A stretch of DNA of 64,000 nt. Source: Eledone cirrhosa (taxonomy: Eukaryota). Below the pieces are notes generated by a model that was not told where the DNA came from, searched no databases, and saw only the letters and a list, made by a program, of their open reading frames with translations. The stretch is from the NCBI GenBank assembly GCA_964016885.1, contig OZ024742.1, positions 227,230,001 through 227,294,000 of the forward strand, in the 5' to 3' direction. The position numbers and the translations under genes are program-made. Position 1 is the first letter of the stretch. Every line of letters starts with the position of its first letter. Shown here one piece after another: positions 2,151 to 58,902 of the stretch.

Positions 2151-2544
2151 GTGCAAAATAATAATAATAATAATGATGATAATAATACAAAATATAAAGT
2201 TTATGAAGTGCATGGAAGACTGAAATTTCAAGATGTATTTTTTGCTTTAGAGCAAAGAACTACGGTGTATAAATTAGTTAATCAATCCAGAGTATAACCC
2301 TTTGAGATAGGAAAACTGGATAATCCGACAGGTGATTGTTGAGCTTTTTCACTTCAAAGAGTTATATTACTAATGTATTCTTAACTATTTTATAGCGATA
2401 ATTCATGTCACTGTTCTTTGCTTCATAGCTAAAACATATTTTGAAACATATTTTCTGTCTTTAACTAAAATGACATTTAAAGAAATTCTAGCAGTTCCTG
2501 TTTTCTATATGTTTGCCTGGGTATATCTATCTATCTTCACACAC

Positions 2545-5500
2545 CCATCCCAGTTAAACACCTCTCTCTTATCACACATCCACCCTGGTTAAACACCTCT
2601 CTCTCTTCACACATCCAGCCCAGTTAAACACCTCTCTCTCTCCTCAGACATCCACCCCGGTTAAACACCTCTCTCTCCTCCCACATCCACCCTGGTTAAA
2701 CACCTCTCTCTCCTCCCACATCCACTCTGGTTAAACACCTCTCTCTCCTCACACATCCACCCCAGTTAAACACCTCTCTCTCCTCACACATCCACCCCAG
2801 TTAAACACCTCTCTCTCCTCACATCCACCCCAGTTAAACACCTCTCTCTTCTCACACATCCACCCCAGTTAAACACCTCTCTCTCCTCACATCCACCCCA
2901 GTTAAACACCTCTCTTTTCTAACACATCCACCCCAGTTAAACACCTCTCTCCTCACACATCCACCCTAATTAAACACCTCTCTCTTACACATCCACCACA
3001 GTTAAACACCTCTCTCTCCTCACACATCCACCCCAGTTAAACACCTCTCTCTTACATATCCACCCCAGTTAAACACCTCTCTCTCCTCACACATCCACCC
3101 CAGTTAAACACCTCTCTCTTCTCACACATCCACCCCAGTTAAACACCTCTCTTACACATCCACCCCAGTTAAACACCTCTCTCTCCTAACACATCCAGCC
3201 CAGTTAAACACCTCTCCTCAGACATCCACCCCGGTTAAAAACCTCTCTCTCCTAACACACCCACCCCAGTTAAACACCTCTCTCTCCTCACACATCCACC
3301 CCAGTTAAACACCTCTCTCTCCTAACACATCCACCCCAGTTAAACACCTCTCTCTCCTCACACATCCACCCCAGTTAAACACCTTTCTCTCCTCACACAT
3401 CCACGCCAGTTAAACACCTTTCTCTCCTCACACCTCCACCCCAGTTAAACACCTCTCTCTCCTCACACATCCACCCCAGTTAAACACCTCTCTCTTCACA
3501 CACATCCACCTCAGTTAAACACCTCTCTCTCCTCACACATTCACCCCAGTTAAACACCTCTCTCCTCACACATCCACCCCAGTTAAACACCTCTCTCTCC
3601 TCACATCCACCCCAGTTAAACACCTCTCTCTTCTCACACATCCACCCCAGTTAAACACCTCTCTCTCCTCACATCCACCCCAGTTAAACACCTCTCTTTT
3701 CTCACACATCCACCCCAGTTAAACACCTCTCTCTCCTCACACATCCACCCTGGTTAAACACCTCTCTCTTCTCACACATCCACCCCAGTTAAACACCTCT
3801 CTCTCCTCACATCCACCCCAGTTAAACACCTCTCTCTCCTCACATCCACCCCAGTTAAACACCTCTCTCTCCTCACACATCCACCCCATTTAAACAGCTC
3901 TCTCTCTCTTCTCACACATCCACCCTAATTAAACACCTCTCTCTCCCTTCACATCCACCCCAGTTAAAAACCTCTCTCCTTCCACATCCACCCCATTTAA
4001 ACACCTCTCCCTCTCTCTCCTCACATTCACCCCAGTTAAACACCTCTCTCTCCTCACATCCACCCCAGTTAAACACCTCTCTCTTACATATCCACCCCAG
4101 TTAAACACCTCTCTCTCCTCACACATCCACCCCAGTTAAACACCTCTCTCTTCACACACATCCACCCCAGTTAAACACCTCTCTCTTACATATCCACCCC
4201 AGTTAAACACCTCTCTCTCCTCACACATCCACCCCAGTTAAACACCTCTCTCCTCACACATCCACCCTAATTAAACACCTCTCTCTTACACATTCACCAC
4301 AGTTAAACACCTCTCTCTCCTCACACATCCACCCCAGTTAAACACCTCTCTCTTACATATCCACCCCAGTTAAACACCTCTCTCTCCTCACACATCCACC
4401 CCAGTTAAACACCACTCTCTTCTCACACATCCACCCCAGTTAAACACCTCTCTTACACATCCACCCCAGTTAAACACCTCTCTCTCCTAACACATCCAGC
4501 CCAGTTAAACACCTCTCCTCAGACATCCACCCCGGTTAAACACCTCTCTCTCCTAACACACCCACTCCAGTTAAACACCTCTCTCTCCTCACACATCCAC
4601 CCCAGTTAAACACCTCTCTCTCCTAACACATCCACCCCAGTTAAACACCTCTCTCTCCTCACACATCCACCCCAGTTAAACACCTCTCTCTCCTCACACA
4701 TCCACGCCAGTTAAACACCTTTCTCTCCTCACACATCCACCCCAGTTAAACACCTCTCTCTCCTCACACATCCACCCCAGTTAAACACCTCTCTCTTCAC
4801 ACACATCCACCTCAGTTAAACACCTCTCTCTCCTCACACATTCACCCCAGTTAAACACCTCTCTCCTCACACATCCACCCCAGTTAAACACCTCTCTCTC
4901 CTCACATCCACCCCAGTTAAACACCTCTCTCTTCTCACACATCCACCCCAGTTAAACACCTCTCTCTCCTCACACATCCACCCCAGTTAAACACCTCTCT
5001 CTCCTCACACATCCACCCCAGTTAAACACCTCTCTCTCCTCACACATCCACCCCAGTTAAACACCTCTCTCTCCTCACACATCCACGCCAGTTAAACACC
5101 TTTCTCTCCTCACACATCCACCCCAGTTAAACACCTCTCTCTCCTCACACATCCACCCCAGTTAAACACCTCTCTCTTCACACACATCCACCCCAGTTAA
5201 ACACCTCTCTCCTCACACATTCACCCCAGTTACACCTCTCTTCTCACACATCCACCCCAATTAAACACCTCTCTCTTACACATCCACCCCAGTTAAACAC
5301 CTCTCTCTTACACATCCACCCCAGTTAAACACCTCTCTCTCCTCACACATCCACCCCAGTTAAACACCTCTCTCCTCACACATCCACCCCAGTTAAACAC
5401 CTCTCTCTCCTCACACATCCACCCCAGTTAAACACCTCTCTCTCCTCACACATCCACCCCAGTTAAACACCTCTCTTCTCACACATCCACCACAGTTAAA

Positions 5501-8060
5501 CACCTCTCTCTCCTCACACATCCACCCCAGTTAAGCACCTCTCTCTCCTAACACATCCACCACAGTTAAACACCTCTCTCCTCACATCCACCCCAGTTAA
5601 ACACCTCTCTCCTCACACATCCACCCCAGTTAAACACCTCTCTCTTACACATCCACTCCAGTTAAACACCTCTCTCTCCTCACATCCACCCCAGTTAAAC
5701 ACCTCTCTCTCCTCACACATCCACCCCAGTTAAACACCTCTCTCCTCACACATCCACCCCAGTTAAACACCTCTCTCTCCTCACACATCCACCCCAGTTA
5801 AACACCTCTCTCTTACACATCCACCCCAGTTAAACACCTCTCTCTCCTCACACATCCACCCCAGTTAAACACCTCTCTCTCCTCACACATTCACCCCAGT
5901 TAAACACCTCTCTCTCCTCACACATCCACCCCAGTTAAACACCTCTCTCTTACATATCCACCCCAGTTAAACATCTCTCTCTCCTCACACATCCACCCCA
6001 GTTAAACACCTCTCTCTTCTCACACATCCACCCCAGTTAAACACCTCTCTTACACATCCACCCCAGTTAAACACCTCTCTCTCCTAACACATCCAGCCCA
6101 GTTAAACACCTCTCCTCAGACATCCACCCCGGTTAAACACCTCTCTCTCCTAACACACCCACTCCAGTTAAACACCTCTCTCTCCTCACACATCCACCCC
6201 AGTTAAACACCTCTCTCTCCTAACACATCCACCCCAGTTAAACACCTCTCTCTCCTCACACATCCACCCCAGTTAAACACCTCTCTCTCCTCACACATCC
6301 ACGCCACTTAAACACCTTTCTCTCCTCACACATCCACCCCAGTTAAACACCTCTCTCTCCTCACACATCCACCCCAGTTAAACACCTCTCTCTCCTCACA
6401 CATTCACCCCAGTTAAACACCTCTCTCCTCACACATCCACCCCAGTTAAACACCTCTCTCTCCTCACATCCACCCCAGTTAAACACCTCTCTCTTCTCAC
6501 ACATCCACCCCAGTTAAACACCTCTCTCTCCTCACACATCCACCCCAGTTAAACACCTCTCTCTCCTCACACATCCACCCCAGTTAAACACCTCTCTCTC
6601 CTCACACATCCACGCCAGTTAAACACCTTTCTCTCCTCACACATCCACCCCAGTTAAACACCTCTCTCTCCTCACACATCCACCCCAGTTAAACACCTCT
6701 CTCTTCACACACATCCACCCCAGTTAAACACCTCTCTCCTCACACATTCACTCCAGTTAAACACCTCTCTTCTCACACATCCACCCCAATTAAACACCTC
6801 TCTCTTACACATCCACCCCAGTTAAACACCTCTCTCTTACACATCCACCCCAGTTAAACACCTCTCTGTCCTCACACATCCACCCCAGTTAAACACCTCT
6901 CTCCTCACACATCCACCCCAGTTAAACACCTCTCTCTCCTCACACATCCACCCCAGTTAAACACCTCTCTCTCCTCACACATCCACCCCAGTTAAACACC
7001 TCTCTTCTCACACATCCACCACAGTTAAACACCTCTCTCTCCTCACACATCCACCCCAGTTAAGCACCTCTCTCTCCTAACACATCCACCACAGTTAAAC
7101 ACCTCTCTCCTCACATCCACCCCAGTTAAACACCTCTCTCTCCTCACACATCCACCCCAGTTAAACACCTCTCTCTCCTCACACATCCACCCCAGTTAAA
7201 CACCTCTCTCTTACACATCGACTCCAGTTAAACACCTCTTTCTCCTCACACATCCACCCCAGTTAAACACCTCTCTCTTCACACACATCCACCCCAGTTA
7301 AACACCTCACTTCACACACATCCACCTCAGTTAAACACCTCTCTCTTACACATCCACCCCAGTTAAACACCTCTCTCTCCTAACACATCCACCCCAGTTA
7401 AACACCTCTCTCTTCTCACACATCCACCCCAGTTAAACACCTCTCTCCTCACACATCCACCCCAGTTAAGCACCTCTCTCTCCTCACACATCCACCCCAG
7501 TTAAACACCTCTTTCTCTCTTCTCACACATCCACCCCAGTTAAACACCTCTTTTTCCTCACACATCCACCACAGTTAAACACCTCTCTCTCCTCACATCC
7601 ACCCCAGTTAAACACCTCTCTCTCCTCACACATCCACCCCAGTTAAACACCTCTCTCTTCACACATCCACCCCAGTTAAACACCTCTCTCTCCTCACATC
7701 CACCCCAGTTAAACACCTCTCTCCTCACATCCACCCCATTTAAATACCTCTCTCTCTCTTCTCACACATCCACCCTAATTAAACACCTCTCTCTCCCTTC
7801 ACATCCATCCACCCCAGTTAAAAACCTCTCTCCTCCCACATCCACCCCATTTAAACACCTCTCCCTCTCTCTCTCCTCACATCCACCCCAGTTAAACACC
7901 TCTCTCTCCTCACATCCACCCCAGTTAAACACCTCTTTCTCCTCACACATCCACCCCAGTTAAACAACTCTCTCTCTCCTCACACATCCACCCCAGTTAA
8001 ACACCTCATCCCTTATCAATCCCATTTTAACACCTCATCCACCCCAGTTAAACACCTCTC
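2545..8060. repeat. Minisatellite, unit about 33-35 bp (CACATCCACCCCAGTTAAACACCTCTCTCTCCTCA), roughly 160 copies
   Basis: Uninterrupted head-to-tail repeats with variable (CT)n length. Confidence 0.98.
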
Positions 8061-20598: not shown

Positions 20599-21234
20599 CT
20601 AACCCTAACCCTAAACCTAACACTAACCCTAACCGCTATCCTAACCCCGATACCCTAATCCTATCCCTAACCCTAACCTAACACTAACCCAATACGTAAC
20701 TCTAACCCAAAACCTAATTCTGACTCTAATCCTTACCATAACCCTAAGCCTAACACTAATGCTAACTCTAACCCTAAAACTGAGCCTAAATGTAACCTTT
20801 AACCTAACCCCAAACCTAACCCTAAGGCTAACTCTAACCCAAAGCAACCCAAACCAACACCACACAACAAACCCTAAACTTAACCTTATTGCTAACCCTA
20901 AACCCAAACCTAACCCTAAAATCAACCCTAACCCTATCCTTAACCGTAACCCTAATGCCAATATTAACCCGATTACTAACCCTCTACCTAACACCAACTC
21001 TAACACTAACCCTAACTCTAACCCTAAAACTAACCTTAGCCTAAACCTAACAATAACACACACCCTAACCCTAATCATAACACAAACTAACTATATCCAT
21101 AAATTTAATGCTAACATTAACACTATCCGTAACACTGAAACTAACCATACCACTAAACCCTTTCCTAAACATAACCCTAACTCTCACACTAACTCTAAAT
21201 ACCAATCTAACCCTAACCGTAAAGCTAAACCTAA
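20599..21234. repeat. Degenerate telomere-like (TAACCC)n tract, left part
   Basis: 6-bp periodic CTAACC variants. Confidence 0.9.
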
Positions 21235-24418: not shown

Positions 24419-25577
24419 CCTAACACTAACCCCTAACACTGAACTTAACTATAAACCTAACTTTAACCCTACTCCTAACCCTAACGCTAATACTAACCAT
24501 AAACCCAACCCTAAACCTAATGCTAACAATGACCCTAACACTAACTCTAACCCTAATCATAACTCTGTAAACCTAACCCTAAACCATCCTTAATGTTAAC
24601 CCTAACACAAAGCCTAAACATAACCCTATCTCTAACCCAAACATAACTATAACCTTAACCATATCCCTAACCCTAAACCTAACTCTAAACCTAACTTTAT
24701 TCCTAGCACTAACCCTAAAACTATCCCTACCCCTAATCCTATCTCTCACGTAACCCTAACTCTTAACTGATCCTTAACCCTAAACTTAACCCTACCACTA
24801 ACCCTAAATATAACCCTAACACTTAACTTTACCCTAACCCTAACCCCAGCCCTAACCTTAAAACCAATGCCGACCCCCAACTCAAATCCTAACCTGGACC
24901 TTACCCTTAATCTTTCCCTAACATATCACTAATTCTAACCCTAAGACTAAGCCTTCACCTAAACCTAACCCCAACCCTAAATCTAATACTAACCCTTACC
25001 CTACCACCAACCCTTTCCGTAGCCCTATCCCTAACGATAACTCTAACAATTAACTTTAACTCTAACAATACTGTAACCCTAACCCTACGCTTACCCTGTC
25101 CCTAACTCTTACCCTAACCTTAAACCTAAACCTAACCCTAACTCTAACATTAACGTTAACCCTAACCTTAAGCCAAACCCCAACCATAACACTAACCTTA
25201 ACACTACCTGACGCTGGCCCTAACCTCAACAGTTAGCCTGGCACTTAGTCGAACACTAACCCTAGCCCTAACGCTAAAACTGACACAACCCTAACACAAA
25301 CCCTGACACTGAACCTGATCCTTAAACTAACATTCACTCAAATCTGAATCCTAACATTATCCCTTACACTAAGCCTGACCTTAGCTCTTACCCCAACCTT
25401 AAACCTAACCTTAATCCTAGCCCTAACACTATCTATAACAATAAACCTAATACTAACACTAAGCCTAACCCTAATCCTAAACCTATCCCCAACACTAACA
25501 CTAAACCTAATCCTAACTCTAACCTAAAACTAAATCCAACCCTAACACTAACCCTAACATTAACCTAACCCTAACAC
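24419..25577. repeat. Degenerate telomere-like (TAACCC)n tract, right part
   Basis: Continuation of the hexamer array after the Gypsy TSD. Confidence 0.9.
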
Positions 25578-57556: not shown

Positions 57557-57563
<7 letters not shown>

Positions 57564-58032
57564 TATGTACACGTATAGTAGTATGTATATATATATATAT
57601 ACATACATGCACACATATATATATGTACGTATGGATTCACCGAACATTTATTATAATGTTCGGTGTGTTTGTAAACAAACATCCCGTATTAAGCCGTAGT
57701 GTCCAGCAACCATCGTTGCTCGTTTGTTCAACACTGACAAAGGAACGCTGTACTAGTTTCAAGCTTATTAGCTATCGTCAGCAACATATACCTTCCTGCC
57801 AGATTGTTGAACGTATATACTTACCTTATGCATATTAACGGCTGAGTAGCCCAATTTGCATATCGAGTGGGTTAATCGGCCGGGTGCACCGAAAACGACA
57901 AACACACCGAGCATTATAATAAATGTTCGGTGAATCCATACGTACATATATATATGTGTGCATGTATGTATATATATATACATACTACTGTACGTCTGTA
58001 TACATATATGTATGTACGTGTACATACTTATA
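57557..58032. repeat. Inverted-repeat element (about 115-135-bp arms) next to (TA)n
   Basis: GTACGTATGGATTCACCGAACATTTATTATAATGTTCGGTGTGTTTGT and its reverse complement at about 57899-57945, with matching outer microsatellite-like arms. Confidence 0.8.
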
Positions 58033-58577
58033 TTTAAGTAACAGCCGTACTAAGAGTGGGAAATGAAATTTCGTTTCATTTTTTTCCGTTTATATATATA
58101 TATATATTAAGTAAGTAAGTTAATTTTTCTAAAAAAATTTTTTAAAGAAATTTTCTTATTTTACGTCTTATATATTATTGTTCTGCATCCTCCTGCATTG
58201 AACCACCTAGGTACTATGACATAACCTATGTATTTGCTGGTATTAGCGTACATCTGTGCGCTTATGTTAGTAGATATATAAAATTATCTATATTTATCTC
58301 CAAATCACTGATTTGTCGAGCAAACCTGCCAAAACCACTTCTAAAAATTTTTTTGGGGGGTGTTAGTAGGCGTCTGTCATCTTACCATCCCATTCCTACT
58401 GACTAGCCTCTGTGTCACGTGATTGATTCTTTAGAATCGGCCATATGATCAGTGGCAGTGAGAATTTTCAGTGGCTGGAATCCAGTCCTCGATAGCTGTT
58501 CTAGTTGCCGAATTATTATTATTTTTATATGAGTCCCCAGTGTCCGCGCATCGCCTGGAGACTCGGCTGAGAATGAC

Positions 58578-58657
58578 CTCCCTGATGACGCAATGAAATT
58601 CTCAACAGTTCATTACGTAACTGTCTTTATCCCATTGCAGAAACTAATTAGTTGGAG
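58578..58657 (+). ncRNA. Type I hammerhead ribozyme with long loop 2
   Basis: CTCC-CTGATGA-cGCAATG..CATTGCa-GAAA-CTAATTAG-TT|GGAG; cut after 58653. Confidence 0.8.
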
Positions 58658-58834
58658 TGAAAATTTAAGTAAGTTAATTTTTCTAAAAAAATTTTTTTAA
58701 AGAAATTTTCTTATTTTACGTCTTATATATTATTGTTCTGCATCCTCCTGCATTGAACCACCTAGGTACTATGACATAACCTGTGTATTTGCTGGCATTA
58801 GCGTACATCTGTGCGCTTATGTTAGTAGATATAT

Positions 58835-58902
<68 letters not shown>

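Follow-up and report, generated by a model that had tools for sequence, protein, structure and literature searches.

The described systems closest to the element reported here are the non-LTR retrozymes of animals and the Penelope elements; published work is cited throughout for the parts of each source that were covered. Animal retrozymes are non-coding tandem units with a single type I hammerhead, a GC content below 50% and no LTR, and their strongly folded monomers coexist with Penelope elements (PMC7229834). A monomer or circle has been hypothesised as the retrozyme template (PMC7229834, PMC7761336). Penelope insertions carry a tail at one end (PMC8557442, PMC3846280), which in vitro work has attributed to two internal priming sites (PMC11167929); for the anole element of that study, hammerhead cleavage was unnecessary in vitro (Frangieh 2024). 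The features listed for animal retrozymes recur in the Eledone cirrhosa family described below. We consider it probable that this family is a non-autonomous retrozyme copied by a Penelope-like enzyme, in which a genomic start at +12/+13 from the hammerhead cut likely marks the 5′ end left by self-cleavage.

The window, the whole stretch of 64,000 nucleotides that was analysed, comes from a 3.0 Gb genome and contains at 58107-58842 a copy of about 1.3 units (1.3 laps) of a many-copy, non-coding, 555-base hammerhead repeat set in (TA)n (Table 1). The 176-bp direct repeat described in the sequence-only reading (58112-58287 and 58666-58842) is borne out, with 174 of 176 aligned bases identical and one extra T; it is the overlap produced by a 1.3-lap copy, not a terminal repeat or LTR. 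The monomer had been put at about 554 nt, which is the spacing of the two copies, the family monomer being given as 555 nt. The second repeat copy does begin at +13 from the predicted cut (58666). The proposed insertion start at 58112 was wrong, because the first repeat copy retains a third TAAG unit, which moves the true start to 58107-58108, still +12/+13 in family numbering; three TAAG units are the commoner form (103/167 copies counted). The insertion ends at about 58842, where it merges into (TA)n, and a target-site duplication is unreadable inside such a run. There is no long ORF, the longest ATG-started frame in the element having 35 codons. The monomer has a GC content of 37% and is predicted to fold better than 100 of 100 shuffles (z = −6.6). 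The window copy has one hammerhead only, at least two standing in tandem at other loci; it is a product rather than a stand-alone source of monomers, and has itself been read through one predicted cut site.

Table 1 Features of the retrozyme copy and its target in the window (positions are those of the window; + numbers count from the predicted cut).
Feature	Positions	Strand	Basis or remark
(TA)n target, upstream half	58091..58107	.	sequence
Whole insertion; starts at +12/+13 in one lap and ends at the long 3′ site (+189) in the following lap	58107..58842	+	also listed as L103
Repeated part, first copy; locus-unique T>A at 58280	58112..58287	+	
Predicted AT-rich hairpin just 5′ of the short 3′ site	58113..58161	+	prediction
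Single-copy part of the monomer; non-coding	58288..58653	+	
Type I hammerhead including predicted distal helix I (58571-74 with 58663-66)	58571..58666	+	
Core CUGAUGA and extra C between A9 and G10.1	58582..58589	+	
Helix II (6 bp), 37-nt loop 2, inner hairpin 58605-10/58619-24	58590..58638	+	
Extra A before G12, then GAAA	58639..58643	+	A in 201/201 copies
Palindromic helix III	58643..58652	+	energies predicted
GUU triplet; predicted cut between 58653 and 58654 (+1)	58651..58654	+	hammerhead consensus
Repeated part, second copy; T>A at 58835 as in the first	58666..58842	+	
Short 3′ site A (+73, family numbering); passed here, 3′ end in other copies	58725..58730	+	
Long 3′ site B (+189); 3′ end of the window copy, runs into (TA)n	58836..58842	+	
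(TA)n target, downstream half	58840..58899	.	sequence

A second, unrelated hammerhead element adjoins the insertion at 57560-58090 on the − strand, with its core at 57781-57775 and a predicted cut after 57751. It has a minimal type I motif with a palindromic helix III and, at the base of helix II, a U-U mismatch such as has been reported for an axolotl motif. Its 88-nt inverted arms (57585-57672 and 57898-57985), one longer by a tail, both end in (TA)n, and a relative lies at L200:6400-7580. Elsewhere the window contains a 35-bp satellite (160 copies) and two degenerate, telomere-like arrays of the CCTAAC type (2530-8007, 20599-21074 and 24419-25575).

A genome-wide search found further members of the family and no sign of a unique local duplication. 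The unique part of the monomer has at least 41 full-length matches at 98-100% (best 40 of 2072 candidates scored), a 27-mer from the family has 172 exact matches in the genome, and a wider hammerhead pattern has 3026 matches as against 0 in the reversed control. Counted from the cut, the 3′ ends fall at two fixed sites 116 nt apart, A at +73 and B at +189. Both sites are TA-like and are followed by a TA or TC run; diverged subfamilies use the corresponding sites for their 3′ ends. Inverted pairs arranged head to head are common among the insertions and were counted in two locus sets. The first comprises all 51 loci behind the first 100 of the 172 27-mer matches; the second, selected for an A end, adds the 59 loci that were new in the first 100 of 123 matches. 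Inverted pairs of the first set have one A and one B end in 27 of 28 cases and two B ends in the other (two pairs with a non-family end omitted); in the second set the partner of the A end is B in 39/43 pairs and A in four (one pair omitted).

In a natural array the cut-to-cut spacing is 557-558; the array at L089-L090 (G000:C3:20669118-20679736) runs to about 19 units. This array and that at L175:818-3704 contain higher-order repeats with periods of about 4 and 2 units, respectively, showing later local expansion or assembly error. At four further loci (L073, L105, L144 and L171), arms have internal jumps or deletions between short shared A/T words.

The retrozyme insertions combine the features of Penelope-type insertion, i.e., fixed 3′ ends, a one-sided tail, variable 5′ truncation and inverted 5′ copies. 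The genome also holds a Neptune-like Penelope element which, like the retrozyme, has two 3′ ends in (TA)n, with one short and one long end in 8/8 inverted loci where both ends are visible. The score of its reverse transcriptase is under the Pfam cut-off, and its GIY-YIG motif was identified by visual inspection; GIY-YIG matches are plentiful in the genome. At one locus (L084/L200), a retrozyme arm ending at the long site (B) and a Penelope end at the short site bracket one insertion: between two TA runs stand the B-ended arm, an inverted arm and a partial-tandem Penelope element, which is the pattern of one insertion, although two nested events may also have produced such chimeric loci. A similar junction at L184 joins +474 to a LINE-like fragment, which we take to be RTE-like, and to a pLTR-like remnant. 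In the 41 Penelope loci compared, a small sample of the Penelope families in the genome, no pLTR homology to the retrozyme was found beyond inserted copies; the case for a Penelope partner rests on the shared pattern and one chimera. No relative of the Penelope protein was found in viral contigs.

Several observations attach to these loci. In both L084:4266-4685 (L200:66-470) and L184:1226-1622, an inverted arm ends at +473/+474 and the other starts at +469/+471, so that the 5′ edge of helix I is the same site used twice; the geometry is presumably that of twin-priming. The Neptune-like ORF at L200:2310-3326 contains a long asparagine-rich segment, resembling the N-rich inserts known from Penelope elements of rotifers (PMC3846280). 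Further small type I hammerheads lie near GIY-YIG loci (L231, L130 and L237); in the one at L231, helix III is palindromic and helix II has an A-G mismatch at its base.

The hammerhead itself can be read directly from the sequence as a type I motif with a predicted cut after 58653 (GUU), as first proposed. Stem I is formed by CUCC (58578-81) and GGAG (58654-57), followed by the core CUGAUGA (58582-88); stem II pairs GCAAUG (58590-95) with CAUUGC (58633-38) and leads to GAAA (58640-43). The core CUGANGA, GAAA, the NUH triplet and three helices in type I order are thus all present. The earlier description of loop 2 as 37 nt with its own hairpin (ACAGUU 58605-10 with AACUGU 58619-24), and of helix III as the perfect palindrome ACUAAUUAGU (58643-52), also holds. 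That description overlooked two unpaired bases, C at 58589 and A at 58639, one on each side of the G10.1-C11.1 pair. These two bases are the family norm, present together in 197/201 copies; the pair they flank is kept in 70/76 distinct copies, and U17 in 75/76. A search of Rfam with the window motif gave no hammerhead match at the gathering score or at E ≤ 10, and since this layout escapes Rfam, similar families are probably under-counted.

Structure predictions bear on how the motif might cut. In the lowest-energy fold the hammerhead does not form: CUGAU of the core is paired with AUUAG from helix III, a pairing that would inhibit the lone motif. For the helix III palindrome, the predicted energy is +1.5 kcal/mol in the hairpin form and −9.0 kcal/mol in an intermolecular duplex. 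Given the competing core fold and the preference of the palindrome for a duplex, cleavage is likely to be dimer-dependent. GUU is a slow cleavage site, and together with the unpaired C and A and the competing core pairing it predicts weak ribozyme activity. Dimer-dependent cleavage has been described for Penelope motifs (PMC4209133, PMC6765202).

Covariation was assessed in 22 aligned copies from several subfamilies, in which 97% of cells are paired, compared with 27-39% in slid controls, and 7/17 pairs show two-sided change; the shuffle control does not give a probability, because the sequences are related. Two-sided changes preserve the pairing of helices I and II and of the loop-2 hairpin, in the latter at 4/4 pairs; the loop-2 hairpin is UUCG-capped in several subfamilies. 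The invariance of the core and of helix III is not evidence, both being fixed by the search pattern. On the whole-cycle reading set out below, the structured loop-2 insert may bind the reverse transcriptase (RT) or gate cleavage.

Turning to the template, most arms cross at least one cut site with exact junctions. Copies within an arm diverge by 1.43% and opposite arms of a locus by 1.35%, as against 3.15% between different loci. At 12/99 loci, 22 locus-unique variants are fixed in all copies of their locus, and at L142, 31 variants are fixed in all copies with zero differences between them (L107, which comprises two separate insertions, is omitted from the divergence and private-variant counts). 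Similarly, the T>A common to the window's two copies is absent from the other 150 of the 152 copies counted. This homogeneity within loci suggests that the likeliest template would be one monomer, circular or re-entered end to end, although gene conversion could mimic the sharing of variants within a locus. Rather unlikely, in our judgement, is that the templates are long, uncut or partly cut linear multimers from genomic tandem arrays, read-through then reflecting a slow ribozyme; such templates would still allow the 5′ end to be set by cleavage. One array (L089/L090) does reach about 19 units, the ribozyme looks slow in prediction, and 34 pairs of loci share one copy-private variant when 14.5 ± 3.8 are expected by chance, an excess that could mean some multimer templates and for which mutation hot spots may also account. 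The units of the long array differ from one another, yet no pair of loci shares two copy-private variants, a weak test since 0.26 pairs are expected by chance. Against multimer templates stand, furthermore, the 31 fixed variants of L142 and the 22 locus-unique variants fixed across copies.

The sequence-only reading took the start of the window copy as that expected for cDNA made on a self-cleaved RNA, and the family 5′ ends, which pile up at the cut site, support it. These ends were curated by hand (±3 nt) and counted only once an arm had passed +49; not entered in the count were the window copy, the long array, L113-L120, which had been selected as full-length copies, any arm that ended short of +49, and three arms that had jumped internally or been duplicated later. 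L163 and L170 have partner arms and were not counted as solo. Among solo copies the 5′ ends are non-random, with 11/38 starting at +4..+17 where 2.3 are expected from exposure (binomial p = 9 × 10⁻⁶; p = 1.5 × 10⁻⁴ for any 20-nt window), and the remaining 27/38 elsewhere. Solo stops occur in 7/38 cases at first arrival and in 4/14 at later arrivals. No solo copy of the 38 starts at +1..+3, and none has its 5′ end within the 20 nt preceding the cut, where 2.0 would be expected. The more AT-rich interval +21..+49 holds 2/38 solo starts; AT content alone is rejected as the cause of the peak.

Paired arms give a similar picture, with 17/128 starting at +1..+18 (7.9 expected, p = 0.002; scan p = 0.04), two of them exactly at +1, although the two arms of a pair are not independent. 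The signal is weaker here because starts at +21..+49 (15, with 12.3 expected) and just upstream of the cut (10, with 7.1 expected) are also above expectation. Across all subfamilies genome-wide, with the strand listed once per locus, the 24 nt upstream of +12 contain 135 TA junctions, 93 of them in the first 12 nt and 42 in the next 12, a step of about 2:1 across the cut. Among the 26 junction loci listed, 22 start at +3..+12 (9 at +3..+6), three upstream, and one is ambiguous. Searching for TA fused to the cut site gave no information, since the reversed control pattern was just as frequent.

The peak coincides with the outer edge of helix I and with A/T bases able to anneal to (TA)n. We infer from the positions of these ends that the cDNA ran off the cut 5′ end and was trimmed to the first A/T bases, and the pile-up after the cut site is likely the genomic trace of a ribozyme cutting in the living animal. 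It is unlikely, in our view, that the pile-up instead records RT stalling at helix I (+8..+13) of an uncut hammerhead, aided by A/T microhomology to (TA)n, in the same Penelope-mobilised family with cleavage dispensable. Such stalling, the chief competing account, could contribute part of the peak and accords with most of the solo starts in the peak lying at +6..+13, with distal helix I predicted at +10..+13, with ATAT at distal helix I in some subfamilies and with the dispensability of cleavage in vitro for the anole element (PMC11167929). It fits poorly with the dearth of solo ends at +21..+49, an interval that is AT-richer and has a stronger hairpin, and with starts reaching +3..+6 in 9 of the 22 listed junctions. 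Moreover, starts drop across the cut although the upstream TAATTA fits TA equally, two paired arms start at +1, and the 20 nt before the cut are free of solo ends. At four loci (L076, L148, L158 and L176), both arms start at +6..+8 and meet via self-complementary AAATTT to form a palindromic junction, as if both cDNAs had reached the RNA 5′ end and then annealed together.

A small LTR or TRIM element with a 176-bp terminal repeat, or a local tandem duplication, is what the window copy taken alone resembles with its two direct repeats around a spacer, and is highly improbable and rejected by the family survey, in which overlaps are of any length up to multi-unit arrays, arms are inverted, and 3′ ends are fixed with variable 5′ ends. 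A plant LTR retrozyme or TRIM was also rejected, as there are no true LTRs and the motif, of type I rather than III, lies outside the repeated part.

If the family is a non-autonomous retrozyme copied by a Penelope-like enzyme, tandem transcripts would be cut slowly into monomers, probably as dimers via the helix III palindrome, and the monomers would circularise or be re-entered end to end. A dimer of the Penelope RT-endonuclease would nick (TA)n and start synthesis at internal positions of the RNA, with one of the two DNA ends priming at site A and its opposite at site B. In about four passes out of five the RT would cross the junction, and otherwise it would run off the cut 5′ end, whereupon the cDNA end would be trimmed as far as its first A/T bases before being joined to the TA run. 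The window copy would have begun at B, made one full lap and stopped at the second arrival.

More tentatively, the genome may record the whole retrozyme cycle, in which a hammerhead-cut monomer is circularised and a Neptune-type RT dimer rolls round the circle; this is a reading to which we give slightly less than even credence. On this reading, the dimer would prime asymmetrically from both ends of the (TA)n break at two sites 116 nt apart, and would stop in about one pass in five because of the ribozyme cut. If true, the whole-cycle reading would provide genomic evidence for in vivo cleavage by a Penelope-type hammerhead and for circles as the insertion template.

On structure, the family appears to belong with the animal non-LTR retrozymes and the non-autonomous Penelope elements; the kind, an animal retrozyme, is already known, and this family is a variant of it. 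At 555 nt the monomer exceeds the 170-400 nt of the animal retrozymes characterised (PMC7229834) and is within the span of 51-972 bp given by Li, Clavereau & Pollet 2026 (bioRxiv 10.64898/2026.07.22.740005), who call a locus ‘active’ when it has at least two tandem hammerheads; the window copy has one. The multi-lap Eledone copies match the circle model of the animal retrozyme papers, where, in the parts covered, insertion ends are unmapped (PMC7229834; bioRxiv 10.64898/2026.07.22.740005). In the covered part of a 2020 review, retrozyme repeats are described as lacking a motif that would indicate a partner (PMC7761336), whereas here the two-site pattern and the chimera indicate one.

Neptune and Poseidon elements likewise form partial tandems with a head-to-head inverted 5′ copy, an optional tail at one end and a microsatellite target (PMC8557442, PMC3846280), and likewise have two internal priming sites downstream of the hammerhead and palindromes at inverted junctions (PMC11167929). 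In contrast to Penelope elements, the Eledone family has no ORF, and its tail is 116 nt rather than 30-40 nt. Both of its 3′ sites are similar to the TA target, unlike those of the anole element, which are not homologous to the cut DNA, and its 5′ ends cluster at the ribozyme site, whereas for the anole element no RNA reads end there in the part of that study covered (PMC11167929).

The motif shares with Penelope-type minimal hammerheads an extra base between A9 and G10.1 with the G10.1-C11.1 pair kept (PMC4209133), as well as a helix II of 6 bp and a helix III whose palindrome would suit cleavage in dimers (PMC4209133, PMC6765202). The Eledone hammerhead differs in having a second extra base (A) before G12 and U at position 17, and it differs further in its loop 2 of 35-37 nt with a covarying, often UUCG-capped hairpin and in its 10-nt palindrome. 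The extra 3′ base was not found in the literature searched, nor was the loop-2 layout, of which the supplements of Cervera 2014/2020 and Craig 2021 may show similar variants. The same literature, with supplements and subscription papers outside its scope, yielded no 5′ ends mapped to the cut site of a Penelope-type hammerhead.

The Neptune-like element provides a candidate helper enzyme, for which the 555-nt repeat would be a substrate with two mapped priming sites. Hammerhead cutting during transposition and a circular template are both called open for the known systems (PMC11167929, PMC7761336, PMC8557442); in the young Eledone family, base-level statistics of insertion ends favour both.
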